From Alphaproteobacteria bacterium (GTDB lineage Bacteria; Pseudomonadota; Alphaproteobacteria; UBA9219): a stretch of 64,000 nt of DNA. Positions 19,231 to 41,155 of this stretch are shown here, piece after piece. The translations under genes and the position numbers were made by a program. The notes beneath the pieces were generated by a model. That model searched no databases, was not told where the DNA came from, and saw only the letters and a list, made by a program, of their open reading frames with translations. Each line of letters begins with the position of its first letter. Position 1 is the first letter of the stretch. Location: assembly GCA_013289265.1 (NCBI GenBank), contig JABDAH010000001.1, positions 61,379 to 125,378 of the forward strand, read 5' to 3'.

Positions 19231-19248
19231 AAAAACCCTCAGAACTTG

Positions 19249-19833: not shown

Positions 19834-19910
19834 GATTGACCTGTTTTCGCGTGCTGAGAACTGCGCGTGTACTCGTGCTAGGAGGTGTTTGGCTTTTGGG
19901 ACGTGTATTT

Positions 19911-20294
19911 TTACGGTCGTAAAAGATCGATAGTGACAGGGCTGGCATATTTGTTATCGGCACCGGTCACAGAGTCAAAACCCCATCCGACGGGACCGCC
20001 TACGAGAATGTAGGCCCAATTATATTCCGGATATTCGGACTTATTAAGATAGGTTGTTTCCCGATAGCCGGCTTTGTCGCACTTAATAGAAATATCGTCT
20101 TTGGTTTTTTCTACATGTAGCGTGCCTGGTGTCGAACTGACGGTGCCAAGCGGTGCGCCATTGCGTAGGAGGGTGCAGCTCGCGCCTTGAGGCGCAGTGT
20201 TTACGACAACGTCCTGAGATTCGCCTTCAATGACCGAAGCGCATCCAGAAAGTAATACAAAACAAGACAGCAAGATAAAGCGTTTGTGATTCAT
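19911..20294 (-). CDS. lipoprotein, unknown function
   Basis: signal peptide plus lipobox LLSGC. Confidence 0.6.
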   Translation of the reverse strand: MNHKRFILLSCFVLLSGCASVIEGESQDVVVNTAPQGASCTLLRNGAPLGTVSSTPGTLHVEKTKDDISIKCDKAGYRETTYLNKSEYPEYNWAYILVGGPVGWGFDSVTGADNKYASPVTIDLLRP

Positions 20295-20382
20295 ATTATG
20301 CCCCTATAAGTGACGTCATCGCTGGTATTCTATGTGTGAAACTATATATGAAGCGACAAAAATTGTCACTTATTTCTCTGGA

Positions 20383-20919
20383 TCATTTATACTCGACCGG
20401 AAAATATTCAGAAATGAGCATTATCGGCACATTTGCCGAAATGACGCGGTAAGTGCGAACCAGTAACATGTTGGACTTGGCGCAATTAAAGTGATCGCAC
20501 AGTCCATTCGCCTGTACATGCTTTACTTCCAGTAATTCCTTAAATGTTTCCAGTTTATGCTCCAGCCATAACCGGCCAAGCGAAGTGTCAGAATTAACCA
20601 GCGCGTTGCGAAATGTGGGGTGTAAGCGGTCGAGTGCAATTGTGGATTCTGCATAGACATAATTCTTGTTCGATTTTTCTCCGCGTAACAGTATTCTTCT
20701 TTCCACAATGCTTGCGCCTGCATTGAGGGTGAGATGCGGGGGAGAAGGAGTAGCGGAAATCGTTTGCTGTGAAATTTTGACTAAATGAATGCGTTCAAAA
20801 AAGGTGGCCTCTAAAATCTCAGTGAGAGTTCCATCTGTAATGATGAGAACTCGCTGCAATGGATTTAAGGTGCCAGCATCGATCCCTTGCAGTTTTTTGA
20901 GAATGTCGAGTGCGGACAT
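20383..20919 (-). CDS. chorismate pyruvate-lyase (4-hydroxybenzoate synthase), Rv2949c/DUF98 family
   Basis: 178 aa; shared blocks with Rv2949c-type lyases: TDGTLT, LLRGE, YAESTIALDRL, ETFKE, YRVIS..PIM..EYF. Confidence 0.75.
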   Translation of the reverse strand: MSALDILKKLQGIDAGTLNPLQRVLIITDGTLTEILEATFFERIHLVKISQQTISATPSPPHLTLNAGASIVERRILLRGEKSNKNYVYAESTIALDRLHPTFRNALVNSDTSLGRLWLEHKLETFKELLEVKHVQANGLCDHFNCAKSNMLLVRTYRVISANVPIMLISEYFPVEYK

Positions 20920-20931
20920 ATATAATTCCGA

Positions 20932-22155
20932 TCAAATTCTTTTAAAGATAAGCGATGTATTGATCCCGCCAAAAGCGAAGTTATTTGACATCAGATATTC
21001 TGTCTGCAATTGGCGTGGGGTCTTGATGATGTAGTCTAACTGGGCGCAACGTTCATCAACGTTTTCCAGATTGGCCGTTGGGCAGAACCAGCCTTCACGC
21101 ATCATTTCGATGCCAAGCCACGCCTCAATCGCGCCGCAAGCTCCAAGCGTATGACCAAAATGCCCTTTGAGAGAATGCATGGGAACTTGTGACCCAAGCG
21201 CTTTATGAGTGGCTTCACTTTCAGCTATATCACCCCATTCGGTTGCCGTGCCATGAGCACTAACGAAGCCAATGGCCTCAGGCGGCAATTCTGCATCCTC
21301 AATGGCAAGACGCAGGCATTGCTGCATAGTGGATGCTTGAGGCGTCGTGATGTGATTGCCATCAGAGTTGCATCCAAAACCCACAATCTCAGCATAGATA
21401 GGAGCACCGCGGGCACGCGCGTGTTCGTATTCTTCCAGTATTAGTGTGCCGGCACCCTCTCCAACAACTAACCCGTCGCGGTCCCGATCAAAAGGTCGCG
21501 GAGTTGTTTCCGGTTGATCGTTTTTGGTACTGGTCGCATAGAGCGTATCGAAAGTTGCGGAATCCGTAATATCCAGTTCCTCGGCACCGCCTGCGATCAT
21601 CATATCGGCTTTGTTCCAGCGAATAGCTTCATATGCATACCCGATACCTTGGCTGCCGGAAGTACAGGCGCTAGAGGTTGGAATAATTCTTCCTGTTATG
21701 CCGAAGAAAACGCTGATATTCACCACCGTGGTTTGTCCCATCATGCGAATGTAATTCGTGGCATTGAGGTGTTTGGATGTTCCATTCATTTTGAGTTCAT
21801 AAAAACCTAGAACAGCATCGGGACTACCGAAGGAAGAACCGTAGGCTACGCCCATACGTCCCGATTGGATGAGGGGGCTATTCAACAGTCCCGCGTCCGT
21901 TAAAGCGCGTTCCGTGGCATAAACTGCCATGCGGGATACCATTCCCATTGTCCGCAGCTTTTTTCGGGGATAACGATCTTCGACAGAAAAACCAATTACT
22001 GGGGCCGCGAGACGCGTATTGACGTCAGTGAAACGGCCCCATTCTTCCATAAAGCGGATGCCTGTGCGCCCAGCGGCAAAGGCGTCGCGAATAGTTGGCC
22101 AATCTTCGCCAAGCGAGGTGATGCCGCCCATACCAGTGACAACGACGCGACGCAT
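20932..22155 (-). CDS. beta-ketoacyl-ACP synthase (FabB/FabF-like; APE-cluster ApeR-like)
   Basis: 407 aa, active-site Cys in SSACTSG, His/His motifs (SAHGTAT, GHTLGACG). Confidence 0.88.
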   Translation of the reverse strand: MRRVVVTGMGGITSLGEDWPTIRDAFAAGRTGIRFMEEWGRFTDVNTRLAAPVIGFSVEDRYPRKKLRTMGMVSRMAVYATERALTDAGLLNSPLIQSGRMGVAYGSSFGSPDAVLGFYELKMNGTSKHLNATNYIRMMGQTTVVNISVFFGITGRIIPTSSACTSGSQGIGYAYEAIRWNKADMMIAGGAEELDITDSATFDTLYATSTKNDQPETTPRPFDRDRDGLVVGEGAGTLILEEYEHARARGAPIYAEIVGFGCNSDGNHITTPQASTMQQCLRLAIEDAELPPEAIGFVSAHGTATEWGDIAESEATHKALGSQVPMHSLKGHFGHTLGACGAIEAWLGIEMMREGWFCPTANLENVDERCAQLDYIIKTPRQLQTEYLMSNNFAFGGINTSLIFKRI

Positions 22156-22880
22156 TAGACCATCCCACCATTTACTGAAATGACCTGACGCGTGATGTAG
22201 CTGGCCTCGTCAGAGCATAGGAAGGCGACGGCGGCGGCAACTTCATCTGGTTGCCCCATACGGCGCATAGGTATTAATTGCGCCACGTCATCGGGTGTTA
22301 GGCCTGAAGTCATCTGTGTTTCAATAATGCCGGGAGCCACGCAGTTCACGGTGATGGAGCGTTTGGCCAGTTCAATAGCCAGGGCTTTGGTCGCTCCAAT
22401 AATGCCAGCCTTGGCGGCACTGTAGTTCACCTGACCGCGATTGCCTACTTCGCCGGATACAGAAGACAGGGTGACGATCCGGCCACCTTTCCGTGCCGAT
22501 ACCATCGGCATCACCAGTGGCCGTAACACATTATAAAAACCGTCAAGATTTGTGCTCAATACGGAATCCCATTCCTCATCTTCCATGGCGGGGAAAGCGT
22601 TGTCTCGCGCAATACCTGCATTGAGCACGACACCGTAATAGGAACCATGTTCTGCTATGTCAGCTTCCAGTACTTTGCGGCAAGTGGCGCGATCGGAGAT
22701 ATCGAAAGTAATTAAGCGTCCTTGCGACCCTGCCTCCTGAACGGCTTGCAAGGTTTTTTCCGCGCCTTCCTTATCTTTTCCATAATGAACGACGATCTGA
22801 AACCCTTCGCGTGCGAGACGGACTGCGATAGCGTGACCTATGCCCTTACTGGCGCCTGTAACCAAGATGGTTTTATCCAT
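22155..22880 (-). CDS. 3-oxoacyl-ACP reductase (FabG-like; APE ApeQ-like)
   Basis: SDR Rossmann TGASKGIG, catalytic YSAAK. Confidence 0.88.
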
Positions 22881-22886
22881 AATATA

Positions 22887-23399
22887 TTATTCCTTTGATG
22901 AATGACTGAAAGCGTCGGACGCATCTTGAGGTTGATATAAATTTAACTGGGCCGAGGCGAGTTCAACATCTCCATGAATTATGCGGCAATCGAATACACC
23001 CATTGTATCCTGTCGATATACTTCTTTTGCTTCGACGACAAGCTGTTGCCCAAGGTTAAACCAACCTGTTGAAGCATGAAAATTTCTTGTTCCCAGCAAG
23101 AATCCAAGGCGCACAGGTTGACCGTGGTTGCGTCCTTCAATACCAGCATATATGCCACAGGTTTGGGCCATATATTCAAGACCGACATAAGACGGAACGC
23201 CGTTATTTTCTATAAAAAATGGGCTGTCAGAACGAATGGTGATTGTAGCAATAACCTGCCCCGCATCCCAGCCAAGCACTTGATCAAGCAACACCATAGG
23301 CGGCGCATGGGGCAACAGATCGGCAATGGGATAGGAACAACTATGCACCGTATTATGCCCTTCCAAGAATGAGGGAGGCATTGCTGCCTCCAAAACCAA
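22887..23399 (-). CDS. hotdog-fold 3-hydroxyacyl-ACP dehydratase (FabA/FabZ-like; APE ApeP-like)
   Basis: LLPHAPPMVLLD motif, hotdog size; start probably internal Met (MPPSFLE). Confidence 0.75.
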   Translation of the reverse strand: MVLEAAMPPSFLEGHNTVHSCSYPIADLLPHAPPMVLLDQVLGWDAGQVIATITIRSDSPFFIENNGVPSYVGLEYMAQTCGIYAGIEGRNHGQPVRLGFLLGTRNFHASTGWFNLGQQLVVEAKEVYRQDTMGVFDCRIIHGDVELASAQLNLYQPQDASDAFSHSSKE

Positions 23400-24546
23400 A
23401 GGAATTACTTAGCATGGCAAGCTGCTTGCCCTCAGGCAGCGGTGTTCCCATCGCCACGAAATTGAGAACGGGCAAATTCGGATCATGGATGCCATCCCAT
23501 AAATGGGGTGGTAAAAGTGCGGGGCTGGTTGCGGCATTCAAGGCAAGCCACAAAAAGGCGGCTTCGCAACCGCCCGTAGCCCCCAACATATGACCTGTCA
23601 TACCCTTGGTGGAGCTGCATGGTGTCTGCGAACCAAAGATGGAAGAAACGGCGCGAGCTTCCATAGCATCGTTCAAAGATGTGGCTGTGCCATGCAGATT
23701 AATATAGGCGATATCGGCAGCTGTAAGTCCTGCATCATCGAGGGCCTGTAGCATGGCTTGACAGGCGCCATTGCCTTCCGGATCAGGAGCTGTGAGATGA
23801 TAGGCGTCTGAAGTTTCTCCGATCCCAAGAAACTGTACCGGCCCGTCGTCCGCGCTTAATAAAAAGGCCGCAGCACCCTCGCCAATGGTTATACCGTCCC
23901 TGTTTGCGCTGAAAGGATTACATTTTTCTTTTGCTAACAATTCCAGAGCGTCAAAACCGTTAAGCGTCATGCGGCACAGCGTATCGGAACCACCTACAAT
24001 GGCGGCATCGGCCAACCCTGCGCGAATTAATCGCCGCGCTGAAGCGAAGACCTTGGCGCTGGATGAGCAAGCTGTTGCCACAGTATATGTGGGGCCAGTT
24101 AAACCCAAAAAACATGCGGCGAAAGTGGAAAGGCCGCTTATTTCCTGTTTGTGATAATGATAATCAGTTGGCCAAGAACCTGTATTTTGGCGAATGACCA
24201 TGGCTTCTTCACTTGAAGATGTTCCTGATGTGCTTGTGCCCAAGACAACGGCGATGCGGTCGCGGCCATAACGTTTAATGGCTTTCTCAACTGCTGGAGT
24301 GATCTCCATGAGAGCCATCTGCATTAAACGATTATTGCGGCAATCGAAATCACGCAAGGCCGCAGGGGGCGTAGGGAGATCATCTCGAACTGCCCCTACA
24401 TAGACTTGTTTGTTGGGCACAAGATCATCACGGAGACTTATTCCATTATTATCTCCCGCAAACAGTGCGCAAGCAACGGCGGTTTTACCATTCCCAAGAG
24501 GAGTAACAATTCCACAATCTTCCAGAAACAGGGGGCGTGCGCTCAC
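23353..24546 (-). CDS. beta-ketoacyl synthase (APE ApeO-like)
   Basis: 397 aa, active Cys TVATACSSS, HGTATSLND and GHMLGATG motifs. Confidence 0.85.
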   Translation of the reverse strand: MSARPLFLEDCGIVTPLGNGKTAVACALFAGDNNGISLRDDLVPNKQVYVGAVRDDLPTPPAALRDFDCRNNRLMQMALMEITPAVEKAIKRYGRDRIAVVLGTSTSGTSSSEEAMVIRQNTGSWPTDYHYHKQEISGLSTFAACFLGLTGPTYTVATACSSSAKVFASARRLIRAGLADAAIVGGSDTLCRMTLNGFDALELLAKEKCNPFSANRDGITIGEGAAAFLLSADDGPVQFLGIGETSDAYHLTAPDPEGNGACQAMLQALDDAGLTAADIAYINLHGTATSLNDAMEARAVSSIFGSQTPCSSTKGMTGHMLGATGGCEAAFLWLALNAATSPALLPPHLWDGIHDPNLPVLNFVAMGTPLPEGKQLAMLSNSFGFGGSNASLILGRA

Positions 24547-25145
24547 GGATTTGTCTCCGTTGACTGCACGTTGAATTCATAACCCCAAGCGATGTTGCGG
24601 TAATGCAATTGCCCAGACCACAAATCGTGCTTGGTATTCATTTGATAATTCGCCTGCCACACTTTTTTGTGTCCAGACATTATCGTGCGACTATATCTGT
24701 CAGCAACCAGTTTGACTAATGAACCCACCAAGCCCTTCTTTACGATGGTCTCCGGCCAATAGAGCAGGACAATATCGGCGAGAATATTTTTAGCCCGCAG
24801 TTGTGAGGGAACCCAAGGTGCTGTTTCAAAATCCGTCCCTTCTTTTGTCCAATTAATAGTCATTATCTTTCGCCCCATAAGATCGAGGCCGATCAATAAA
24901 AAATGTTCCGGCGTTACGCTGATGTGTGCTTCAAATGCAAAATTCTGATCCCCGTAATGTGCTGTCACGAGCTGGACAGCTTCAACGGAATGACCAAGGT
25001 CGGCCGGGTTGGGCATGGTTAAAGCCACGTCAGGCGCGATTTGTACAATTTCTGGAACGTTTGCATCCGATGATGCTTTATCGGTTGAGTTATGGGCACA
25101 AGCGCAAAGAAGCAAGATGAGCGCAAAGGGGATTATGTTTCGCAT
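24543..25145 (-). CDS. lipoprotein (DUF3261-like; APE ApeN-like)
   Basis: lipobox LLLCAC; position between KS and MMPL exporter as in APE clusters. Confidence 0.65.
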   Translation of the reverse strand: MRNIIPFALILLLCACAHNSTDKASSDANVPEIVQIAPDVALTMPNPADLGHSVEAVQLVTAHYGDQNFAFEAHISVTPEHFLLIGLDLMGRKIMTINWTKEGTDFETAPWVPSQLRAKNILADIVLLYWPETIVKKGLVGSLVKLVADRYSRTIMSGHKKVWQANYQMNTKHDLWSGQLHYRNIAWGYEFNVQSTETNP

Positions 25146-25148
25146 CGA

Positions 25149-27476
25149 CTATCCCTGATGTTTTTTGCTTGCTGAGCAAGCCATAGGTGCAAACAGGAAT
25201 GATAGTAATATTCCAGTCGTCATGGTTGCGCCGAAATTATGTACCGCCATTACCCGGCTCAATGCCAGAAGGCCAAAGGACAGCAACGCTGTGCATGCGG
25301 CCATTGTTACCGCCAGTATGGTTACAACTTTGCGTTTTCCCGATGTTTCGGCGCAGAACACAGCATAATCAACGCCAATGGACAGGACAAGGACAAGCGC
25401 CATGGCATCAAAGAATGTAAATGTACCGCCGGCAAGGCACCGTAAGGACGGTGCCAAAATAACGGCCAATGAAGGTGGAACCATAATCCATAAACCTTTG
25501 CGGAAGCCATAACGCCAGATTAACAGAGGTGTCATTAAGGCAGCGGACAAAGCTAAAAGAGCAATTGCGCGGTTACGGTATTTTCCCAAAAGACGGCTAA
25601 AATCACCTGTGGGATCGACCAGATGTATCCCTGTTATACCTTCTGCGGCGGCGGTGACAGCTTCCGGGTGAACGACCCCATCCAGGGCAACCATATGTGT
25701 AACTTCGCCTTGCCCTTTATCCAAAAGCAGTGTCGATAAAAATCCGAGCGGTTTGCCCGATTTGCTTGCTTCAGCAAGAGTTAAAACAGGGCTTTGTTCA
25801 CTTGGCATTGCCGGTGTTGTCGCCAGATCAAGTTTCAGCGTTTGTTGCGCCAGCAATGGTTTATAAAGTTGTTCTCCTTGCAATAACCGGTTTTCTTTCT
25901 GCCTCGCCGCCGAAGGAATATACTGGGATGGTGATTGGAAGCCGGTCAAATCGCCAGCAGCAATCAGCGGGCGCAATCTTTCGGTCAATTTTTCTTCGCT
26001 TTGTAAAGCTGTTTCGTCATCAGGGGCTTGAACAAGAAAGAACTGATTGCTTGCGCTTGCGCCGATGAGTTTCTGAATCGTTTCTTGCTGCGTCACTAAG
26101 CTGGAAGATAATGACTGCATATGCCGCACATTGTCGTCGATGTGAAAGCGCAGAAAACCAATAATCCCGAGAACAACAAGCAAGGCCACCAAGCTTTTGC
26201 GTAGCCGGTGGTATTTGGACGTTTCCCAAAAAGCCAGAAATTCTTTTGCTATAGTCAGCATGGGCTGCTTGCGAGACAATACTGTATGACGGTCAAGCAA
26301 GGGCAGCCACAGCACAACTGTTACCCATGCCGCGAGAAGTCCAACCGCCGAAAAGAGTGCGATCTGATGCAAACCGGGGAAGGGGGCGAGGTAGAGGGTC
26401 AAGTACCCAATAACTGTCGTTGCTGTGCCGAGCGTAATACCAGCCAGAACCCGTTTCAGGCGTTCCTGTGGTGTGCCTATGTGTGGTGAAAAAACCTCAC
26501 TACAATATTGCAGGCTGTAATCAACACAAACGCCGATTAGGCTGATGCCGAATAAAAGCGCTCCCACATGCAACTCACCGAAAATCAGCAAGCTAATGGA
26601 AAGAGCTGTCATAATCCCCACACCTATGACAAGTAAACTCACGATCAGAGGGCGGATGGCACGAAACATAATCATTACTAAAAGAATTGTGCCGATAGTT
26701 GAAGCAATGCCTATTGTGGAGGTTTCCCCCATCGCTTCTTCGGCTCCAGCCTTTGCAAAAAAGACCGCCCCCAAATGCAGAACTTGAATATCAGGATAAA
26801 TGGTGCGTTGAGAGTTAACCGCACGGTCAAAAAAATCTGAAACTTGTTTTTGCACGTCTAGTGCGAAGGGTTCTCCTTCGACCTGCCCAGCAATCATAAC
26901 CCACGTAGTGTCCTTATCCTGTAAGGACAACATGCCATCATCGAGAGATAGGCGCGATAGGGGAAGGGGTAAACTTGTTAGGAAACTCGGCATCAACAAA
27001 AAAGGATCGCTATGGAGTAATTGCCCATTGGCCAGGCCAACGACCCCGTAAACTTGCGACAAGGCGCGGCCAGCAATTGCCTGCCCATGGCCTGCTTTCA
27101 GATTGTCGTAATCTTCATCTGACAAAAGCCCAAAGCGGTAAGGGTAATAGAATGTGCCGATTTGGCGGAGCCGGTCTTTATCAAAACCACTGGTCGTCAT
27201 ATCAAACAAACCGGAAGTTGCGAGCTGATGCGCTATTTCTTTCGCAGCGGCGTAGACTGCGGCTTTGTCTTTATGGCCAACCATAATGACAACACGATGT
27301 GATAAGGCTCGCGTTGCCACGTCATTGGCATGTTGCAGGGCAGGGTTTTGATCTTCTCGCGGCAGTAAGGCCATGAGGTCAGTATGGAAGTTTAAGCCGT
27401 GATTAACCCGGGCCAGCAAATATCCGCCAGCGCTAAGAACCGCTATAAGCCACAGAAATGCGAACAAACGCATCAT
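25149..27476 (-). CDS. MMPL/RND-superfamily predicted exporter (APE ApeM-like)
   Basis: 775 aa with two 6-TM bundles and large periplasmic loops; ATGA coupling with upstream LolA-like gene. Confidence 0.82.
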   Translation of the reverse strand: MMRLFAFLWLIAVLSAGGYLLARVNHGLNFHTDLMALLPREDQNPALQHANDVATRALSHRVVIMVGHKDKAAVYAAAKEIAHQLATSGLFDMTTSGFDKDRLRQIGTFYYPYRFGLLSDEDYDNLKAGHGQAIAGRALSQVYGVVGLANGQLLHSDPFLLMPSFLTSLPLPLSRLSLDDGMLSLQDKDTTWVMIAGQVEGEPFALDVQKQVSDFFDRAVNSQRTIYPDIQVLHLGAVFFAKAGAEEAMGETSTIGIASTIGTILLVMIMFRAIRPLIVSLLVIGVGIMTALSISLLIFGELHVGALLFGISLIGVCVDYSLQYCSEVFSPHIGTPQERLKRVLAGITLGTATTVIGYLTLYLAPFPGLHQIALFSAVGLLAAWVTVVLWLPLLDRHTVLSRKQPMLTIAKEFLAFWETSKYHRLRKSLVALLVVLGIIGFLRFHIDDNVRHMQSLSSSLVTQQETIQKLIGASASNQFFLVQAPDDETALQSEEKLTERLRPLIAAGDLTGFQSPSQYIPSAARQKENRLLQGEQLYKPLLAQQTLKLDLATTPAMPSEQSPVLTLAEASKSGKPLGFLSTLLLDKGQGEVTHMVALDGVVHPEAVTAAAEGITGIHLVDPTGDFSRLLGKYRNRAIALLALSAALMTPLLIWRYGFRKGLWIMVPPSLAVILAPSLRCLAGGTFTFFDAMALVLVLSIGVDYAVFCAETSGKRKVVTILAVTMAACTALLSFGLLALSRVMAVHNFGATMTTGILLSFLFAPMACSASKKHQG

Positions 27477-28093
27477 GGATGCACGGAATTGAAGGCCAGT
27501 TTTTCAGCTGCCGAGGGCGGCTTCGACGACAGTGCTTCATTAAGAAAAGTCAATGTATCAGAATCACCGTCCGGTTTTAACAAAACAACATTCTCAACAA
27601 ACTGATGCCCGCTAACCGTAATTGAACTGAAAGGCATTGCTGGGTTATCAGTACGGCGAGGCAGAAGCAGGACTTGCCAATTTTGATCATCTCCGCTTCT
27701 GGCAACTGTAAAATCTGTTTCTAGCGCCTTCCAATTACCTGCGAGAACGCCTCCCAGCATGTCGTAAAGATGAAGCATAAAGGGAATTTTCTGTGCAGGC
27801 AGGCGCATGACATTAATGCCACCAACGCTTTGCACTAATCCGGAAGGAGTAATAACGGTCGTTGTAGGAAATGGCTTCTCCACGCCCCAAATAACTCCAT
27901 GCTCTGGAGCCACCACAAAATGCCCTTCGGAATTCATAGGCCCGTTGAAGCCCTTTAAATTTCTTTCTTCAATAAAGCGACCCCTTAGAATATCGCTGTT
28001 GCCCATCACAACTTGACCTGCATTCGCGTTGGCGGCGAATGCGATTGAAGATGGAAACAAAAAAAGGAAGGCCAATAAGAAGTGGCGTGTCAT
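27473..28093 (-). CDS. LolA-like outer-membrane lipoprotein carrier protein (APE ApeL-like)
   Basis: signal peptide, LolA-size periplasmic protein; ATGA overlap with thioesterase gene. Confidence 0.7.
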   Translation of the reverse strand: MTRHFLLAFLFLFPSSIAFAANANAGQVVMGNSDILRGRFIEERNLKGFNGPMNSEGHFVVAPEHGVIWGVEKPFPTTTVITPSGLVQSVGGINVMRLPAQKIPFMLHLYDMLGGVLAGNWKALETDFTVARSGDDQNWQVLLLPRRTDNPAMPFSSITVSGHQFVENVVLLKPDGDSDTLTFLNEALSSKPPSAAEKLAFNSVHP

Positions 28094-28512
28094 GAGAGGT
28101 CTTTCAATTTATCGGTTAAGGCAGTTGGTGACTCCAGACAAAGCTCGTTTGTTGAGACCTCAACCGCAACTTGAGTGGTGGTCGCTTTCGTTAAAACCTC
28201 ACCGCTAGCGTGGTCACGAATAATATATTCGATCTTCAGGCGGTTTGCAGATTCCAGAATTGTAGCGGAGATAACAAATTTTTGATGAAATCGTATGGGA
28301 CGTATAAATTTCATCTGCATATCAACAATCGGCCAGATATAGCCTGATGCCTGCATTTCGGCGTAGTTATAGCCTATATTATCAAGCAGCTGGCAGCGTA
28401 CTTGTTCCAGAAAACGGGCATAGTTGCCGTGCCACACAACCCCCATGGGGTCGAGATCATAGAATTGTGCCGTGAGTGTTATTTCCGTAGAGACCATGAC
28501 TAGCGCGCCCAA
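28090..28512 (-). CDS. 4HBT-type acyl-CoA/ACP thioesterase (APE ApeK-like)
   Basis: hotdog thioesterase YbgC-like pattern (YDLDPMGVVWHGNY). Confidence 0.75.
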   Translation of the reverse strand: MGALVMVSTEITLTAQFYDLDPMGVVWHGNYARFLEQVRCQLLDNIGYNYAEMQASGYIWPIVDMQMKFIRPIRFHQKFVISATILESANRLKIEYIIRDHASGEVLTKATTTQVAVEVSTNELCLESPTALTDKLKDLS

Positions 28513-30137
28513 AAATCGAAGAAGTTATACCATTGGAAAGGTGCCGAGGCACTGTAATGTTCGAGGCGCGAAGCATATCTTGCCACACAGGCACGTATAC
28601 CTTCTTCGCGCGCGCCACGCGATAATCGAATGTTTTCTGCAAAAGGCTCCATCGTTAGACGATAGCGTCTACCATCCTGCAAACAAAATAACAGATATAT
28701 CGGACAATCAAGTAGGGCGCCAAGTAACCACGGTCCTTGCGGAAAAGCGGCGTCAGCACCAAAAAAAGGCACGAAAACACTATGTTCTTTGCTTAGAACC
28801 GACGTGCGATCACCTGCTATAACAACCCATTCGCCGCGCTCGACGCGTTGCTGAAGATCTATAATAGTTTCTGGCCCTATTTCTGTTACCTGTAATGTAT
28901 TCATGGAAGCTTCAGGGCGGAGCTTGCGCAGCAGGCGATTATAGTTTTCAGCGTGCCGTGTGTGCACCAATATCGTTATTCGTTCCTGCGTTTTTTTATC
29001 GAGAACGGCGCGCGCAACATCTACATTGCCAAGGTGTGCAACAACAATAAGACCGCCGCGTGGATCGTTAGAAAATTCGGCAAGCTGATCGGGATCAGTT
29101 GGCTCAACTGTTATTGCTTTAACATCATCTGTCCATGCAATGAAAACGTCCAGCGACCGCATGGCGAAGTTCATTTGGTGGCGATAACCTTCACCAAAAG
29201 TGGGGGAATGTTTCAAAACTCGCTTTAAGAATTGCCGTGAAGCAAGGCGCTGTTTGTTGCCAAAGAGGTAAAAATACAAAACAATAGGAGCCATGATTAT
29301 TTTGCAGCCTTCACGGCCCAGCAGACGATAGGCGCTTATACAAAATTTTAATCCCCAATAACCCCCACGCTCGGCAAGATCGGCCCAATGTTTTGAAATT
29401 ACCAATTTTGGTGGACGATGAGAAAAAATGGACGGCAACCGCATCAACATAGTTAGGAAAAGACGCGTGTGCATTTTTGTAATTCGCCAGTTGTCGCGCC
29501 AAAGACGGAAGTTGGACGTATTGTCAGCTGGATAAATCACTTTTAATGGCAGCATAACGGGCGCAACGCCGCGCCAAAATAACCGCACCATAATATCCGT
29601 ATCGAATTCCATATGCTGGCCGATTTTCTCTTCGGCCAGAAGCTTCTGCACGGGGGCGAGGGGATAGACACGAAACCCGCACATACTATCTGTTATGCGG
29701 AAGGACAAAGTTTCAATCCATACCCATATATGTGTAATCCAACGGCCAATTTTTCGGCCTGTGGGGATGGAGTTATCATAAACCGGTTGACCACTGATAA
29801 GTGCATCTGGATGCTTTGCGGCTAGTGCCAACATGTGGTGCAAGGCATTCAGATCATGCTGACCATCCGCATCAATTTGTAGCGCATTGGTAAACCCCGC
29901 TGCCTGTGCCAGTTGGAACCCTTTCGTGACGGCGGCTCCCTTACCTTGATTGTTGCTCAGTCGGTGCACAACAATTTTGTTGGCGTCGTCATGCAATGCA
30001 GCGATTACGGAACAAGCTGGTTCGGTGCTGCCATCATCAATAATGAAGACCGGCAAATTGGCTTCGCGCAGTCGCTGAACGACGAGGCCAATCATTTTGT
30101 GATGATTATAACTGGGAACTATTGCGCAAATGTTCAC
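28500..30137 (-). CDS. fused family-2 glycosyltransferase and LpxL/HtrB-type lipid A acyltransferase (APE ApeJ-like)
   Basis: GT2 N-domain (VPSYNHH, FIIDDGS, DADGQHD) plus C-terminal lauroyl-acyltransferase-like domain; track ORF starts 30260 but GTG 30137 overlaps upstream stop (GTGA). Confidence 0.75.
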   Translation of the reverse strand: MNICAIVPSYNHHKMIGLVVQRLREANLPVFIIDDGSTEPACSVIAALHDDANKIVVHRLSNNQGKGAAVTKGFQLAQAAGFTNALQIDADGQHDLNALHHMLALAAKHPDALISGQPVYDNSIPTGRKIGRWITHIWVWIETLSFRITDSMCGFRVYPLAPVQKLLAEEKIGQHMEFDTDIMVRLFWRGVAPVMLPLKVIYPADNTSNFRLWRDNWRITKMHTRLFLTMLMRLPSIFSHRPPKLVISKHWADLAERGGYWGLKFCISAYRLLGREGCKIIMAPIVLYFYLFGNKQRLASRQFLKRVLKHSPTFGEGYRHQMNFAMRSLDVFIAWTDDVKAITVEPTDPDQLAEFSNDPRGGLIVVAHLGNVDVARAVLDKKTQERITILVHTRHAENYNRLLRKLRPEASMNTLQVTEIGPETIIDLQQRVERGEWVVIAGDRTSVLSKEHSVFVPFFGADAAFPQGPWLLGALLDCPIYLLFCLQDGRRYRLTMEPFAENIRLSRGAREEGIRACVARYASRLEHYSASAPFQWYNFFDFWAR

Positions 30138-30484
30138 GTTCGTGTCCCCAGCTTTAATTGACCAGAAGACATAAGGACATCCTTTGATTGGTACGCGAAT
30201 GAAAGTCGCTTTTTTAAATTGTCCAGTTTCAGCGTAAGGGAAATTGGCACGCCGGGACAAATAATATTGCGAAATTTTACCTGAAAGTCGTGCACAGGCG
30301 GCTCCTTAATACCAAGATGAATGGCGGCAAAACGCACTGCCCAATCAATCTGCACGACACCGGGCAAAATGGGATTGTCAGGAAAATGACCGCGAAAAGC
30401 TTCTAACTCAGGCGACATGTCTATAGCGAGAATGACTTCGTTTTCCTTTGATTTATCAGTGGTAAGAACGACAGGAAGTTTCAT
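30134..30484 (-). CDS. hotdog 3-hydroxyacyl-ACP dehydratase (FabZ-like; APE ApeI-like)
   Basis: HFPDNPILPGV motif; start at MKLPVV immediately after ligase stop. Confidence 0.75.
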   Translation of the reverse strand: MKLPVVLTTDKSKENEVILAIDMSPELEAFRGHFPDNPILPGVVQIDWAVRFAAIHLGIKEPPVHDFQVKFRNIICPGVPISLTLKLDNLKKRLSFAYQSKDVLMSSGQLKLGTRT

Positions 30485-31800
30485 GTGCCCTCGTTGAATA
30501 AAGCACATATATCGGCATCATTGCGCTTGCCTAATGCCTTTGCGGGTAATTCATTTACGAAACGCCATCGACGCGGAATGCCGGCGGCTTCAAGTGTAGC
30601 GCAAAGATTGCTTCGCAAAAGCCGGCCAAATCTAAATTTGCCAATTTCAGCGAGAGTTTTTTGCCCTTTCTCGTTTGGAACGACTGCGGCAACCAGACGG
30701 ATAGGTTTGCCTTGCAATACGGCAACCGCTGCGGCCTTTACAAAAGGAAGTTGCGTCAATGATTGTTCGACCGCAGCGAGCGCAATACGCTTGCCTTCAA
30801 TCTTGGCAATGCGATCGGCGCGGCCAAGGAAACGAAAGCCATCGGCAAGCGGCTCAATAAGATCAGCCGTCGTTAGCCACTCGTTACCGATAAAAGGTGA
30901 ATCGAGAACAAGGCATCCATTCTCGTCACAACGTATCGACATGTTGGGGAGCAATTTCCAGGGCTCATCACCAATTTCCTGAGAGCGCGTCGCGAAGGCA
31001 CCTGTTTCGGTACTGCCAAAAATTTCTGTGGGACGGCATCCGAAAACCCGTTCAGCCTGTTGACTGGCCGCAAGAGACAGAGGTGCGCCTGCCGAAAAAA
31101 TACGTCGAGGTTTTTGGTTTTCCGGAATTAGGGCTATGCCGCCCATGCGCTCTAGATGCGCAGGGCTGCTGACAATAACAGAATCCGGGTGAAGTTCTGC
31201 AAAAAGGCTTTCCCATAATGTATGTGTTGTGGCTGAGAAAGGGCGGCCTGCCATAAGTGGCCAAAGTAATTTGAAAGTCAGCCCATACACATGTTGGTGT
31301 GATACTGTGTCGAAGACAGGCCCACATCCTGAATTGCTTCCCCACAAAGCATCCAATGTCATAATCTCACGTTCCAGCATCGCCAGATTTTTCGAGACTT
31401 TCTTAGGCGCCCCTGTTGAGCCGGAGGTTAAGAAATTCAGAGAGAAGCGTTCAGCATCAATCGGTTTCAACTCAATAGCTTTGCCTTGGCCATTTTCAAT
31501 AAGAGAGTCATCGATAAGAAGATCAAATTCTTCTGTTCCCGTTTGCGTAAATCCCGCTTTACTGTTCGGGAGCATCACGACATTTGCTCCAGCATGGAGC
31601 AATCCGTAGAATCCGACAATAAAATTGTAACTATCCTGACAAACAAGAGCGGCCCGACGGCAATCCTTAAAATGGACAGCGGCATCCATAACATCACGAC
31701 GAAAACGGCCAAAATGAATTGGCTGACCGTTCCGCAAAGCCACAGTATGGTCGTCTGGTCGTCCTTCGACCAACAAGCGTGATAAAGGTATAAGCGTCAC
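30481..31800 (-). CDS. AMP-dependent synthetase/ligase, aryl-acid:ACP ligase (APE ApeH-like)
   Basis: adenylate-forming motifs (TSGSTGAPKKV, GSTETG); probable GTG start at 31800 overlapping membrane-protein stop (GTGA); track ATG 31956 would overlap upstream gene by 160 nt. Confidence 0.75.
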   Translation of the reverse strand: MTLIPLSRLLVEGRPDDHTVALRNGQPIHFGRFRRDVMDAAVHFKDCRRAALVCQDSYNFIVGFYGLLHAGANVVMLPNSKAGFTQTGTEEFDLLIDDSLIENGQGKAIELKPIDAERFSLNFLTSGSTGAPKKVSKNLAMLEREIMTLDALWGSNSGCGPVFDTVSHQHVYGLTFKLLWPLMAGRPFSATTHTLWESLFAELHPDSVIVSSPAHLERMGGIALIPENQKPRRIFSAGAPLSLAASQQAERVFGCRPTEIFGSTETGAFATRSQEIGDEPWKLLPNMSIRCDENGCLVLDSPFIGNEWLTTADLIEPLADGFRFLGRADRIAKIEGKRIALAAVEQSLTQLPFVKAAAVAVLQGKPIRLVAAVVPNEKGQKTLAEIGKFRFGRLLRSNLCATLEAAGIPRRWRFVNELPAKALGKRNDADICALFNEGT

Positions 31801-32399
31801 CGGCGCACCATGCGTCGAACTATAACTTCGCCCATAAAAAGTGTTCCCATAAGTAGATACGACACTAGACCATTCCATAATGTCCACTGGGCTAATGTTC
31901 CCCACAAGGCAGTCGCGGCTGAGATGAGCGCATTGGCCAGAAGAAAGAGGGTCCATATTATCGTCACCCGGCGCGTATAGATGACCCCGCTTAAAGGTAA
32001 GTTTGGTTCTGTTAGACGGGCGAAGCGTTCCACGAGTGGAGGAGGGTATAATAAAGACAGACCAAAAACGGCAGCCACGGATAAGCTAACAATGACAGGA
32101 TAAGCGCGAACGGCGAGATGGGAATTCAGAAAGAGCATCACGATTAATCCGGCGGCGGTAATAAGAAAAGCTATTTTCCATATTTTGCTATCGGGTTGTT
32201 GTCGCAACGCCAGAAGTCTCAGGCCTATCAAGGCTAGCCCGACTAAAACGAAACTCATAGAAGGCAAAATACCCATACCAAAATAAACGAGCGGCGGATA
32301 AAGCAGGCCACCCGCAAATGCTATAATGAGCCACGGGTTAGGGTTAAGCCGGTTCATTCTCTTTGAGGAGCTTTTCAACGCAGTCAAGTACATCACCAA
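31797..32399 (-). CDS. COG4648-type integral membrane protein (APE ApeG-like)
   Basis: 200 aa, 5-6 TM; alternative start MNRLNP at 32357. Confidence 0.65.
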   Translation of the reverse strand: MVMYLTALKSSSKRMNRLNPNPWLIIAFAGGLLYPPLVYFGMGILPSMSFVLVGLALIGLRLLALRQQPDSKIWKIAFLITAAGLIVMLFLNSHLAVRAYPVIVSLSVAAVFGLSLLYPPPLVERFARLTEPNLPLSGVIYTRRVTIIWTLFLLANALISAATALWGTLAQWTLWNGLVSYLLMGTLFMGEVIVRRMVRR

Positions 32400-32601
32400 C
32401 TGTGCGAACCATTTTGAAATCTTGGGGTGCTATACGTCGTTTTGTCAGGGCTTGGAGTTTGACTACAAGATCAATGGCATCGATGCTGTCCAGCCCAAGT
32501 TCTTCAAACAGTTTGGCTTCGGGCGTTACTTTTTCCGGGGGAATTTCAAATAATTCCCTGAGGACATCTTTAAGCTTTTGCAGAAGTTCGCCGCGCGTCA
32601 T
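32344..32601 (-). CDS. acyl carrier protein
   Basis: 85 aa, phosphopantetheine site LGLDSIDAIDL. Confidence 0.9.
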   Translation of the reverse strand: MTRGELLQKLKDVLRELFEIPPEKVTPEAKLFEELGLDSIDAIDLVVKLQALTKRRIAPQDFKMVRTVGDVLDCVEKLLKENEPA

Positions 32602-32882
32602 GACACTTGCTCCCGTTGGGATAATATAAAGCGTGCAAGGTTCTGTATGTTGGCGAAATGCACCTTAACTTCATCGGTGACGGTCGCGATCTTAATGCCG
32701 TAACGTTTGCGAAGAATGACGCCAAGTTCAAGGGCATCGATAGAATCCAGTCCCAAACCTTCTCCAAAAAGCGGTTCCGTGCTGTCGATTTGTTCGGGAG
32801 AAATATCCTCCAATTTTAGCGCATCGATGATGAGATGTTTGAGCTCCAGCTCAAGACTGGTTACTTCTGGTTTGAGCTGCAT
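32598..32882 (-). CDS. acyl carrier protein
   Basis: LGLDSIDALEL; start taken at MQLKPEV (track ORF extends to 32951). Confidence 0.85.
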   Translation of the reverse strand: MQLKPEVTSLELELKHLIIDALKLEDISPEQIDSTEPLFGEGLGLDSIDALELGVILRKRYGIKIATVTDEVKVHFANIQNLARFILSQREQVS

Positions 32883-33648
32883 AATAAGATTCCAAAGATT
32901 CCACAAGCTTGCGTGCTGCAATACTGCGCTGATCATATAGAGAGTATGCATTAGCGTCTAGACACTCACCCACGACAATCTGAAAAAACGGCTTTTGTGA
33001 CGGATAATGCCACCAAGGCTCACCTTTAAACAAAAAGGGAGGTGTGCAGGCTATGAAAACCAGCTGTATAGGCGCTTTCGTTAAAGTGGCTATATTGGCA
33101 AAACCCCGTTGAAAGTGGGGCAAAGTTCCTGGCGGTGTACGCGTTCCTTCGGGAAAGATAATTAAGCATAGTCCATCGTCAAGCGATGCTCTGCAGGCAG
33201 TCACCAGCTCCTCAGGATCGAGATCGTTGCGGATATATCCCGCCTGCCGCATGAGAATTCCCAGAAAGCGATGCCGCCATAACTCATGTTTCACGATGCA
33301 CTGTACGCGAGGTATCAAGGCCATCAGGATAACGACATCCAGCAAAGAAGGATGATTGGCTATAATCATTTTGCCGCTACTTTTAAGCAGCTTTTCGGGG
33401 GCTGTAATCTGCAAGCGTATTAGCCCTAGAAATTGCAGCGCCCAGAGATAAAGGCGGAACGATTTATGGACAAGAAATTGTGTTCGTTCGCGCCGGTTGC
33501 CGGGCATAAACACCAGTGATAGAAGAACCATGACGGCCAGTACGCCGCCGCCCACAAAAATAAGGGCCAAGGCCACCAGCTTTCCAAGCAACAGCCATGG
33601 ATATTTAAGCCACCGCATGACGTGTCCACCGCCATTGGACGTTGACAC
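32851..33648 (-). CDS. lysophospholipid (1-acyl-glycerol-3-phosphate-type) acyltransferase (APE ApeD-like)
   Basis: PlsC motifs NHPSLLD (HX4D) and FPEGTR. Confidence 0.8.
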   Translation of the reverse strand: MSTSNGGGHVMRWLKYPWLLLGKLVALALIFVGGGVLAVMVLLSLVFMPGNRRERTQFLVHKSFRLYLWALQFLGLIRLQITAPEKLLKSSGKMIIANHPSLLDVVILMALIPRVQCIVKHELWRHRFLGILMRQAGYIRNDLDPEELVTACRASLDDGLCLIIFPEGTRTPPGTLPHFQRGFANIATLTKAPIQLVFIACTPPFLFKGEPWWHYPSQKPFFQIVVGECLDANAYSLYDQRSIAARKLVESLESYYAAQTRSNQS

Positions 33649-34282
33649 CGACCGAAAGGCCTTCAGTTAAATTGCCGGTCAAAAAATTTAGGAAATCATG
33701 CGAATGAGACGTTGAGGGTTTGTCTTTGTGCTGAGACGCTTCAAAGTCGATCTGAATTAAGTCGCCTTCGCCGGTTGTAGCTAGTGCAAGGGCTATGGCT
33801 ATAGGTTGTTCAGTGGGGTCGTTAAATTGAGAAAAGGCACCAGGTAATGGCTCGTCAAAGTGAATGAGTACAACCGGTTCGTCAGGATTTTCCTTCAAAC
33901 AGGCAATAGCCTCCAACAGGCCATAACAGAAACTTTCTTGACCCGCCGCTATAGCCGTATGGCCTTTGTGATTACCGTGAGCAATGGATAGCAATCCGAT
34001 CAAGGCGTTATGTACCGATAAAGTAAAATCTGCCGGAGACAAGTCGCTTCGGTTTGCGGCCGCTTCCAGCAAAGACAAAGTGCGGCTGAATTCTCCGTGA
34101 CGTGACGAAAGAATAAGGCGTGCATTCGCTGTTTCCGGCAACTCCCACGCGCTACTCAAAGCCTGCCTGCCGAGCGGAGTAACGCGGCGGCGTAAGAGAG
34201 CAGGGACAGCATTGGTGTGTTCCACAACACAATCGGGCGTCCAATATCCCCATCCGCGCAAACGAAAACTGGCGGTTTTCAT
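33605..34282 (-). CDS. ketosynthase-like chain-length-factor protein (APE ApeC-like)
   Basis: 225 aa KS N-terminal-like fold without canonical ACSS active-site Cys. Confidence 0.6.
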   Translation of the reverse strand: MKTASFRLRGWGYWTPDCVVEHTNAVPALLRRRVTPLGRQALSSAWELPETANARLILSSRHGEFSRTLSLLEAAANRSDLSPADFTLSVHNALIGLLSIAHGNHKGHTAIAAGQESFCYGLLEAIACLKENPDEPVVLIHFDEPLPGAFSQFNDPTEQPIAIALALATTGEGDLIQIDFEASQHKDKPSTSHSHDFLNFLTGNLTEGLSVGVNVQWRWTRHAVA

Positions 34283-34286
34283 ATTT

Positions 34287-34700
34287 TTAGTTATAGGCCG
34301 CCTGAGACAGTTTCTTGTCGATCGCGTTCTGAAGGTCGCGGACGCGTTGATTATATTTGCGGTGGATCATGCCGTCTGACTCTTTCAGGTTTTGTGAGGA
34401 GTCCAATTCGATGCTGTACTCTTTATTAGAGTATGTGATATCGGCTGTTGCCGAGTGCTCACGCCATTTAAGGGTGCAATGCAATTGCCCCGGCTTAACT
34501 TCATTTACTGCCCAGCCTTTTTCTATAGCGGTCTTGGCGATCATCTTTCCAATCTGTTCAGAAGAATATTTTTGATGTGTGCCCGCAGGAACGACATCTT
34601 CTTCGACATTGTAAACAGGCTCCACGCGGGCGCAGGAGGCAAATGCCGCGACCATTACGAGTATGATACCGAATTTTCTCCAGACTTGACCCATAACCAT
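34287..34700 (-). CDS. lipoprotein, first gene of APE-type operon
   Basis: signal peptide with lipobox AFASC. Confidence 0.55.
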   Translation of the reverse strand: MVMGQVWRKFGIILVMVAAFASCARVEPVYNVEEDVVPAGTHQKYSSEQIGKMIAKTAIEKGWAVNEVKPGQLHCTLKWREHSATADITYSNKEYSIELDSSQNLKESDGMIHRKYNQRVRDLQNAIDKKLSQAAYN

Positions 34701-34785
34701 CTCCTTGTTAGCGGCTGAATATTTCTATTTCCGATGCGGTGCGGCAAATCTATGACTCATTCTTACAGGCATGCAATAGTCTAAT

Positions 34786-35463
34786 TTGCAGTGGGGTAGA
34801 AAAATGGTGACATTAACGACGGTTTCGAGCGAAAGCCCAATCGCAAAATCATTAATCCATAGATGGGCAACGCCAGAGGATCGCGCACAGGCCAAGCTGC
34901 GCCGAAGTGACGCACGTCAATATGAGTTTCTGCTAACACGGGCAACTTTGCGAGCTTTGTTGACTAGTGTTACGGGGATTGGCGATTGGCGCATCTATCC
35001 AGATGCTAAAGGTAAACCGCAAACCTTGTCCCCGACTGGCAAAACGGGGCCGCACATTTCCTTATCCCATACGCGGGGATTGGTGGCCTGCGCAGTATCT
35101 GAAACGGGGCCCATTGGGGTCGATGTTGAATATTGGTGGATGCGCGATTTTATGGCTCTTGCCAATTATGCTTTCGGCCCACGGGAATGCGCGGAGGTGG
35201 CCCGCAACGGGATCTCCGCATTTTACCGTATATGGACTTTGAGAGAGGCGATATCCAAAGCTAAAGGTATTGGATTAATGGCGACACTTGACGGTAATGA
35301 TAGCGTCGCAGACGCGCCGGTTACCGGCTGTTGGGAAACAAACGCGTGGCAATTATTTCATCTTTCGCCGAAACCCGATTACAGTTTTGCAGTCGCTACC
35401 AAAGATGAAAGCGTGTGGTCAGAGGCATCGCTTACTTGGATTGATATGGAAAAAATTAAGTGA
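34786..35463 (+). CDS. 4'-phosphopantetheinyl transferase (Sfp/EntD type)
   Basis: PPTase motifs GVDVE and WTLREAISKAKG (W/FxxKEA...K); divergent from APE operon. Confidence 0.8.
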   Translation: MQWGRKMVTLTTVSSESPIAKSLIHRWATPEDRAQAKLRRSDARQYEFLLTRATLRALLTSVTGIGDWRIYPDAKGKPQTLSPTGKTGPHISLSHTRGLVACAVSETGPIGVDVEYWWMRDFMALANYAFGPRECAEVARNGISAFYRIWTLREAISKAKGIGLMATLDGNDSVADAPVTGCWETNAWQLFHLSPKPDYSFAVATKDESVWSEASLTWIDMEKIK

Positions 35464-35515
35464 TTTTTCCTTATTTGGGCTGGTTGATTGTCGCTACAGC
35501 CTTAAAAAATAAGGC

Positions 35516-35590
35516 TGGTTGGGGCGGGAGGGATCGAACCTCCGAATGGCGGAATCAAAATCCGCTGCCTTACCGCTTGGCTACGCCCCA
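35516..35590 (-). tRNA. tRNA-Gln (anticodon TTG)
   Basis: cloverleaf read manually: acceptor TGGGGCG/CGCCCCA, anticodon stem GCGGA/TCCGC with loop TTTTGAT, T-loop GGTTCGATCC, encoded CCA. Confidence 0.8.
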
Positions 35591-35765
35591 GTAGCGATTA
35601 TGGTTAACGAAACCATGCCAAATCAGCCCGGAACATAGCCTCAGATTTTAACCTCGGCAATGGGGATTAATGCATCCTTAAGGCTTGATACACTTCTTTT
35701 TAACGATACGGGTGTATTTCGGGGTTGGGGAGACACTTTCAAGACAACTTGCAAAGAGGGCGACT

Positions 35766-40687: not shown

Positions 40688-40736
40688 AGTTTGAAGTGCT
40701 TACAAAATTATAATCAACCAACCAAGGAGAAGACAA

Positions 40737-41150: not shown

Positions 41151-41155
41151 GTTGA

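Follow-up and report, generated by a model that had tools for sequence, protein, structure and literature searches.

Gene content and organization of the locus

The DNA analysed here (hereafter the window) is a 64,000-nucleotide stretch of contig JABDAH010000001.1 from an uncultured alphaproteobacterium (GenBank assembly GCA_013289265.1), in which a set of genes resembling those for the biosynthesis and export of aryl polyene (APE) lipids is located at 20383-35463. Gene content was established from a listing of open reading frames (ORFs) and from Pfam and NCBIfam scans, and each window protein was compared by BLASTP with the annotated ape locus of Escherichia coli (L077: apeA, apeB, apeC to apeR, and acpT), which served as the reference. 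Eighteen minus-strand genes follow one another without interruption from 34700 to 20383, together with a divergent plus-strand gene at 34786-35463 coding for a 4'-phosphopantetheinyl transferase (PPTase). A preliminary description of this DNA had counted about 17 minus-strand genes; the contiguity and the coordinates that it gave hold, and the count is corrected to 18. Between apeA and apeR, adjacent genes either overlap or are separated by no more than 6 nt, and the ATG of the last gene, coding for a predicted chorismate pyruvate-lyase, lies 12 nt past the apeR stop codon. From apeA to the lyase gene, where no gap exceeds 12 nt, the genes are thus translationally coupled. As called, the ORFs of ApeE, ApeH, ApeJ and ApeP are over-extended at the N-terminus: the true start of ApeE is probably the ATG at about 32882, and that of ApeH is most likely a GTG at position 31800, overlapping the stop codon of apeG in the sequence GTGA.

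The operon encodes a type II polyketide synthase. Indeed, the following predicted proteins, all encoded on the minus strand, were identified: (i) an ApeC-type chain-length factor (CLF), partner of ApeO (33605-34282; PF13723, 181 bits), in which the active-site Cys is missing; (ii) its partner, the ketosynthase (KS) ApeO (23353-24546), which carries both KS domains and a Cys-His-His triad and matches PRK09185 with 513 bits; (iii) a FabB-like homodimeric KS, ApeR (20932-22155; PRK09116, 666 bits), also with a Cys-His-His triad; (iv) a FabG2-type ketoreductase, ApeQ (22155-22880; TIGR01831, 398 bits), 63% identical to E. coli ApeQ; (v) the two dehydratase subunits ApeI (30134-30508; PF22818 ApeI-like, 59 bits) and ApeP (22887-23399; PF22817 ApeP-like, 80 bits), whose best matches in the PDB are chains 6qsr_A, from Xenorhabdus doucetiae, and 6qsr_B, respectively; (vi) two acyl carrier proteins (ACPs) with PP-binding domains, the starter ACP ApeE (32598-32951; PRK09184, 86 bits; 48% identical to E. 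coli ApeE) and a second ACP, ApeF (32344-32601; PRK05350, 110 bits; 51% identical to E. coli ApeF), both with the phosphopantetheine serine in a GLDS motif; and (vii) an adenylate-forming ligase of the AMP-binding family, ApeH (30481-31956), predicted to act on an aryl acid and an ACP, with the motifs TSGSTGAPKK and GSTETG and 33% identity to E. coli ApeH. The FabG2, PRK09116, PRK09185, PRK09184 and PRK05350 models were all matched above their NCBIfam cut-offs. The two KSs with a catalytic Cys and the CLF without one, as read in the preliminary description, agree with the alignment to the E. coli proteins.

The genes for lipid attachment and export were also all found, on the same strand. The former code for a PlsC/LPLAT-type acyltransferase, ApeD (32851-33648; PF01553; 37% identical to E. 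coli ApeD), a fusion of a GT2 glycosyltransferase with an LpxL-type acyltransferase, ApeJ (28500-30260; PF00535 and PF03279; E 3e-161 and 41% identity with E. coli ApeJ), and a hotdog (4HBT-type) thioesterase, ApeK (28090-28512; 4HBT_2 and 4HBT; 43% identical to E. coli ApeK). The export genes code for a COG4648-type membrane protein, ApeG (31797-32399), a LolA-like carrier, ApeL (27473-28093; PF19574 LolA_3; 24% identical to E. coli ApeL, E 1e-16), an exporter of the RND/MMPL family, ApeM (25149-27476), and a DUF3261 (LolB-like) protein, ApeN (24543-25145; PF11659, 88 bits; E 3e-10 with E. coli ApeN). ApeL, ApeM and ApeN correspond to the LolA-like/MMPL/DUF3261 export module proposed earlier. 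Profile searches recovered the CLF and the export proteins in part: ApeC, ApeL and ApeN were found with Pfam, whereas ApeG (no Pfam or NCBIfam match) and ApeM (no significant Pfam match; weak NCBIfam matches to HpnN/HAE3) were recovered through E. coli homology alone. This homology is collinear and amounts to 47% identity for ApeG (E 1e-34) and 30% over 782 amino acids (aa) for ApeM (E 5e-86). The operon begins with a gene for an ApeA-like lipoprotein (34287-34700), in which a Cys comes after the signal peptide; the protein is 37% identical to its E. coli counterpart (E 2e-23), with no Pfam match. Every component listed in the preliminary description (KSs, CLF, ketoreductase, dehydratases, ACPs, ligase, acyltransferases and thioesterase) was therefore retrieved at its place by Pfam, NCBIfam or E. 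coli homology.

Membership in the aryl polyene family

Seventeen window proteins have one-to-one, collinear best matches to E. coli ApeA and ApeC to ApeR, with identities of 24–63%, and the gene order is that of the E. coli locus except for the missing apeB. Comparison with PDB sequences points to the same family: ApeC matches only ApeC of Acinetobacter baumannii (7f28_A) and of X. doucetiae (6qsp_B); ApeO matches X. doucetiae ApeO (6qsp_A) at 2e-105, compared with about 1e-48 for FabF; and ApeR matches A. baumannii ApeR (7f27_A) at 2e-155. The core set that defines the ape biosynthetic gene cluster according to Grammbitter et al. consists of apeO, apeR, apeE, apeF, apeC, apeI, apeP, apeQ and apeM (bioRxiv 10.1101/2020.12.19.423268). 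All nine are present, each best-matching its E. coli counterpart. The cluster thus shares with those of E. coli CFT073 and X. doucetiae the gene set and the order apeA, apeC to apeR, and differs from them in that it lacks apeB, has the lyase gene after apeR where E. coli has acpT, has its PPTase gene in divergent orientation at the apeA end, is followed by two extra lipoprotein genes and belongs to an alphaproteobacterial host.

On the basis of sequence comparison, the region appears to be a functional-looking operon for the biosynthesis and export of APE lipids (APELs), with the E. coli/Xenorhabdus architecture (apeA, apeC–apeR) and two cluster-linked helper genes, the lyase and PPTase genes. 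We place the probability of this reading at about 0.85. The collinear one-to-one homology with E. coli, the Ape matches in the PDB and the intact catalytic residues bear out the earlier proposal of a complete APE-type type II polyketide synthase cluster for a pigment lipid. Some observations nevertheless weigh against the reading in whole or in part. Promoter-like and terminator-like sequences are no more numerous than in shuffled sequence. ApeH is only 33% identical to E. coli ApeH, and its 4-hydroxybenzoate (4-HBA) substrate is a prediction. The lyase falls below the equivalog cut-off of the NCBIfam model for cyanobacterial chorismate lyase (NF037993; 29.7 versus 175 bits). It is absent from the 76 other APE loci found through ApeJ and is thus dispensable for the APE family, and in this organism it might provide for ubiquinone synthesis as well. 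Lastly, the protein encoded at 18115-19230, on the same strand and 18 nt after the gene of a DUF4823 lipoprotein, could in principle methylate the product.

Another branch of the APE superfamily was also considered, namely a xanthomonadin-like or flexirubin-like cluster, or one using another starter such as 3-hydroxybenzoate (3-HBA), benzoate or coumarate. Xanthomonadin clusters (with XanB2) and flexirubin clusters (with the tyrosine ammonia-lyase FlxA) are members of the superfamily that encode their own aryl-starter supply. Their starter enzymes are unrelated to the lyase of the window (a chorismatase yielding 3-HBA or 4-HBA, and a tyrosine ammonia-lyase yielding coumarate), and their tailoring consists of bromination or of a dialkylresorcinol ester. 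A few profile matches lean in this direction: the ketoreductase matches the flexirubin FlxB model with 289 bits, below the cut-off of 340, ApeL weakly matches the flexirubin LolA2 model, and the best NCBIfam match of ApeH is a 4-coumarate–CoA ligase, far below the cut-off. Against these stand the gene order, collinear with the E. coli ape operon, and the family of the in-cluster lyase, which makes 4-HBA specifically. Moreover, no halogenase, tyrosine ammonia-lyase, DarA/DarB or XanB2-type chorismatase was found with Pfam and NCBIfam in any ORF of 18115-36233. The flexirubin and xanthomonadin readings were rejected because these signature genes are missing, as had been anticipated from the lack of a halogenase, and we regard another branch or another starter as most improbable.

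Predicted supply of the 4-hydroxybenzoate starter

The gene immediately downstream of apeR (20383-20919, minus strand) encodes a predicted Rv2949c-type chorismate pyruvate-lyase (PF01947, 61.2 bits versus a cut-off of 22; positions 2-143 of the 149 of the profile). Its AlphaFold2 model (mean predicted local distance difference test score, pLDDT, 88) matches the DUF98 structure 2nwi with template modelling (TM) scores of 0.81-0.90 and E. coli UbiC with bound product (1g1b) at E 1e-5. Residues R74 (in RRILL) and E171 (in SEYF) align with the REILL and TELF segments of UbiC, at positions that we take to be the catalytic R76 and E155, and are invariant in 35 homologs. From its sequence, the protein appears to share a superfamily with the cyanobacterial chorismate lyase while falling outside that orthologous group.

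An APE scan based on ApeJ, with one genome per species, yielded 76 loci. In these loci and the E. coli reference (together L001-L077), no homolog of the lyase was detected even at E ≤1, nor any UbiC-type gene. By contrast, a search started from the lyase itself recovered homologs (50–71% identity) that adjoin APE clusters on a further five contigs and show four arrangements: the lyase gene follows apeR, as in the window, in L078/L086; it follows the PPTase gene, divergently from apeA, in L080/L090 and L085/L120; it is convergent with the PPTase gene in L094; and it is convergent with genes located after apeR in L084. This shuffled yet persistent adjacency speaks for a functional linkage. The lyase is a genuine but rare APE accessory gene. 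The fold, the conserved Arg and Glu and the recurrence beside other APE clusters uphold the dedicated chorismate lyase proposed for the 3' end of the cluster. The earlier caution that the lyase and PPTase genes are not always part of APE clusters was also well founded, as the lyase was found in 0 of the 76 other loci and the PPTase in some only.

The lyase might instead be a general cellular source of 4-HBA, for instance for ubiquinone synthesis in the manner of UbiC or of cyanobacterial Sll1797, that merely neighbours the APE operon or supplies it along with other pathways. The 76 ApeJ-found loci without any Rv2949c-type or UbiC-type lyase speak for this, since they imply that the starter of APE clusters usually comes from the general 4-HBA pool of the cell, as it does in E. 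coli (PMC8253772), and no second lyase is visible within the window. However, the short same-strand junction with apeR and the recurrence of the lyase beside APE clusters in varied arrangements argue for a selected linkage; no ubiA or other ubi gene lies near the lyase gene, and the remaining lyase homologs are also found beside ligase and ACP systems, not beside ubi genes. A general role with mere adjacency is accordingly rather unlikely, and a role in starter supply for the APE operon is preferred.

ApeH could then adenylate 4-HBA and load it onto an ACP without a CoA intermediate, as suggested by its homology, its adenylation motifs and the adjacent gene for a 4-HBA-forming lyase. A precedent is known from Mycobacterium tuberculosis, in which Rv2949c, FadD22 and Pks15/1 act in this order. 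The Rv2949c–fadD22–pks15/1 locus for phenolic glycolipids and p-hydroxybenzoic acid derivatives resembles the cluster of the window in several respects: a PF01947 lyase is encoded beside an enzyme adenylating p-hydroxybenzoic acid, polyketide extension leads to an envelope lipid, and an RND/MMPL exporter and a lipoprotein are encoded nearby. It differs in that the polyketide synthase is of type I and the product is a saturated phenolphthiocerol, not a type II polyene, and the lyases are distantly related. Given this locus and XanB2 in xanthomonadin clusters, the in-cluster lyase is a small variation with clear precedents. No paper describing a chorismate lyase inside an APE cluster was found in the literature searched, and this may be an unreported accessory feature.

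The lyase adjoins an adenylating enzyme outside APE clusters as well. The majority of its remaining homologs, which come chiefly from soil and peat, belong to a cluster in which an AMP-binding ligase (AMP-ligase) gene is followed by the lyase gene, an O-methyltransferase gene and glycosyltransferase genes. The full order is ACP, amidohydrolase, AMP-ligase, Rv2949c-type lyase, O-methyltransferase, PMT_2, GT2, LPG_synthase_TM and FAD oxidase. The cluster recurs in L083 (8439-20591), in L089, L091, L093, L100, L105, L109 and L112, and in others, possibly from Acidobacteria/Korobacteraceae. It looks like a second, apparently uncharacterised pathway for a 4-HBA-derived (glyco)lipid that uses the same lyase clade.

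Divergent phosphopantetheinyl transferase

The divergent gene at 34786-35463 encodes an Sfp-type PPTase (ACPS, PF01648, 39.7 bits versus a cut-off of 25). The protein contains the motifs GVDVE and WTLREAISKAKG, its W..EA..K segment aligns with E. coli AcpT, and the two proteins are 31% identical. It scores below the cut-off of the NCBIfam AcpT equivalog model (NF007676; 41.3 versus 174 bits) and below that of the HetI model. Judging from these scores, it would match the role of AcpT by its position without being an AcpT equivalog. A homolog is encoded divergently upstream of apeA or apeC in about 20 related loci from alpha- and 'delta'-proteobacteria, whereas in Enterobacteriaceae acpT follows apeR on the same strand. 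The link between acpT and APE has already been published (De Lay & Cronan 2006, as cited in PMC8253772). The PPTase gene was thus rightly read as a cluster member, since it recurs beside APE clusters, and its adjacency was already known from acpT in E. coli.

Methylation of the head group

In E. coli and Xenorhabdus, the APE head groups are 4-hydroxy-3-methylphenyl or 4-hydroxy-3,5-dimethylphenyl and are made by the methyltransferase ApeB (PMC8253772; bioRxiv 10.1101/2020.12.19.423268); that of E. coli is 4-hydroxy-3-methylphenyl, and an X. doucetiae ΔapeB mutant makes desmethyl APELs (bioRxiv 10.1101/2020.12.19.423268). In the definition of the ape cluster given above, ApeB is a variable tailoring gene and not a core gene. 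A tblastn search with ApeB of E. coli detected no homolog in the window (best E 0.12), and none in the alphaproteobacterial relatives either. A class I methyltransferase of about 264 aa unrelated to ApeB, here called MT264 and containing the motif VLDIGCGQG, flanks 14 related clusters and may be an alternative head-group methyltransferase; it was seen at the cluster edge in L010, L014, L016, L018, L019, L021, L023, L024, L025, L027, L028, L031 and L044, and is absent from the window. As the cluster contains neither ApeB nor MT264, a plain 4-hydroxyphenyl head, and hence a desmethyl APE, is predicted. The preliminary description had spoken of an unmethylated product of the E. coli type. The E. 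coli-type architecture is confirmed, but the wording is wrong because the E. coli APE carries a methyl group made by ApeB.

It had also been stated that there is no methyltransferase. This is true inside the cluster, but a gene for a methyltransferase-fold protein that is invisible to Pfam lies just downstream. Indeed, the third gene downstream of the cluster (18115-19230, minus strand), 18 nt past the DUF4823 gene, encodes a protein of 371 aa for which nothing was found in Pfam at E ≤10 or in NCBIfam, and nothing meaningful among PDB sequences. Its predicted structure (pLDDT 90), which alone disclosed the fold, has an N-terminal class I S-adenosylmethionine-dependent methyltransferase fold and a helical/Rossmann-like C-terminal half. 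In the model, the N-terminal 200 aa resemble O-methyltransferases of the caffeoyl-CoA/catechol type and the sugar C-methyltransferases TcaB9 and KijD1; the protein also has an ETGTGxG motif and invariant acidic residues. These 200 aa form a widespread standalone family that is often fused to other methyltransferase domains.

This protein, if co-transcribed downstream of the DUF4823 gene, might methylate the head group, and the product would then be a methylated APE. Its strand and its proximity to the DUF4823 gene, the confident model with an O-/C-methyltransferase-like N-terminal part, the conserved motif and acidic residues, and the fact that related APE clusters use methyltransferases of two or more unrelated families (ApeB and MT264) are all compatible with such a role. 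Yet no homolog adjoins any of the 157 APE or lyase loci that were examined. Close homologs are instead found in glycan contexts of the sugar/nonulosonate type, with genes for a CMP-sugar synthetase, DegT, a heptosyltransferase and MptE-like proteins, and the frequent fusion of the domain to other methyltransferase domains also argues against a dedicated APE function. Since the neighbours of its homologs are genes for sugar modification and in no case APE genes, the gene was placed outside the cluster, to which it is probably unrelated. Methylation of the head group by this protein is very unlikely, and the desmethyl product remains the preferred prediction.

Downstream lipoproteins

Two conserved lipoprotein genes located between the lyase gene and 18115-19230 (together 19249-20294, minus strand) had been omitted from the earlier inventory. 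The first (19911-20294) encodes a small lipoprotein of 127 aa with the lipobox LLSGC and a weak PEGA-like match (E 0.046); its homologs follow the APE cluster in L078 and L084, with 79% and 67% identity, respectively, and it is absent from L001-L077. The second (19249-19833) encodes a DUF4823 lipoprotein of 194 aa with the lipobox VTGC (PF16105, 57 bits), and homologs are encoded downstream of apeR in L001 (55%) and L084 (44%). Both are probably accessory members of the cluster.

Proposed pathway

Following the roles described for the Ape proteins (PMC8253772; bioRxiv 10.1101/2020.12.19.423268; PMC8358021), the pathway could proceed as follows. The Rv2949c-type lyase would cleave chorismate into 4-HBA and pyruvate, and the divergent PPTase would convert apo-ApeE and apo-ApeF into their holo forms. 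ApeH would then adenylate 4-HBA and load it directly onto holo-ApeE. Extension with malonyl units would be carried out by ApeO–ApeC (KS–CLF), helped by ApeR; in each round ApeQ would reduce and ApeI–ApeP would dehydrate the intermediate, to give a conjugated aryl polyene of the hexaene or heptaene type. A second conjugated fatty acyl chain could be carried by ApeF, and ApeD, ApeJ and ApeK would build the pigment onto a glycerophospholipid–aminosugar anchor. Lastly, ApeG, ApeL, ApeM and ApeN, with the lipoprotein ApeA, would move the pigment to the outer membrane, and the two downstream lipoproteins may join in this export. The product would be a yellow pigment bound to the membrane, with an absorbance expected near 430 nm.

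Related loci and a possible alphaproteobacterial sub-family

The best ApeJ matches are 62% identical and belong to Rhodospirillales-type Alphaproteobacteria (Telmatospirillum, Magnetospirillaceae, Azospirillum, Curvivirga, Sneathiella), whereas Enterobacterales and rumen Treponema are more distant by ApeJ. The closest relatives, L001–L033, come from Rhodospirillales-type Alphaproteobacteria and from metagenome-assembled genomes (MAGs) labelled 'delta-proteobacterial'. With ApeJ 44–62% identical to that of the window, they have the same gene order, no apeB and often a divergent PPTase gene. They differ from the window in that the lyase and the 127-aa lipoprotein are missing from all of them, the DUF4823 lipoprotein is confined to L001, and 14 have MT264 at the cluster edge.

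The cluster of the window is a further example of a very well-known family, with minor accessory variation; one more APE cluster adds little, and the value of this one is modest. The window and the loci L078, L080, L084, L085 and L094 could represent a distinct, undescribed APE sub-family, from an uncultured alphaproteobacterial lineage, that is self-sufficient for its starter through a recruited lyase, naturally desmethyl and equipped with an enlarged set of lipoproteins (ApeA, the 127-aa PEGA-like protein and the DUF4823 protein) for placement in the outer membrane, the same lyase clade feeding the second, soil/peat ligase–lyase–O-methyltransferase–glycosyltransferase cluster. We give this proposal an even chance. 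The cluster of the window indicates that some lineages hard-wire the supply of 4-HBA into the APE cluster, using the lyase family of mycobacterial phenolic glycolipids. Lyase-bearing APE clusters would then be portable and independent of UbiC for heterologous expression. The natural architecture without apeB predicts a desmethyl pigment, and the two conserved lipoproteins are candidates for additional components of APE export, a route that is still poorly understood.

Several features of the other loci were also recorded. APE-like clusters are present in rumen and gut MAGs of Treponema (Spirochaetes; L048 and L056-L074), with ApeJ 36–43% identical to that of the window and, in some of them, ApeB. 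A 3-kb contig binned as 'Patescibacteria' (L041) contains apeG–J with 58% identity and was probably assigned to the wrong bin. In L084 (11612-19348), a beta-lactamase-family gene is inserted after apeR, and the same locus has a 970-aa gene carrying DUF3261 that looks like an ApeM–ApeN fusion. In L080 (2866-5772), the end of the APE cluster at which the PPTase gene is followed by the lyase gene abuts mobilisation genes (DUF736, relaxase, NikA/MobC-like).

Host and genomic context

An enterobacterial origin, suggested by a GC content of about 50%, was rejected, as megablast of the region against 5,426 E. coli genomes gave no match; the E. coli ape genes were found only by distant blastn, at about 67% identity. 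The Ffh protein of the window is 78–84% identical to proteins of 'Alphaproteobacteria bacterium' MAGs, and a gene for a DUF1465/RcdA-like protease adaptor (35685-36233, plus strand), just past a tRNA-Gln gene, fits an alphaproteobacterium.

This tRNA-Gln gene (35516-35590, minus strand) has its 3' end facing the PPTase end of the cluster. The mean GC content at third codon positions is 0.47 in the cluster genes (19249-35463) versus 0.56 in the flanking genes. This drop and the position of the tRNA gene hint at horizontal acquisition. Neither a repeat of the 3' end of tRNA-Gln (with ≤3 mismatches) nor an integrase was found within the window, and the related loci have no tRNA gene. Elsewhere in the window, the housekeeping genes ffh and rimM are located at 39308-41731, and genes coding for a UDP-galactopyranose mutase, a GT4 glycosyltransferase and a heparinase II/III-like protein at 11368-12549 (plus strand) and 42919-45908 (minus strand).

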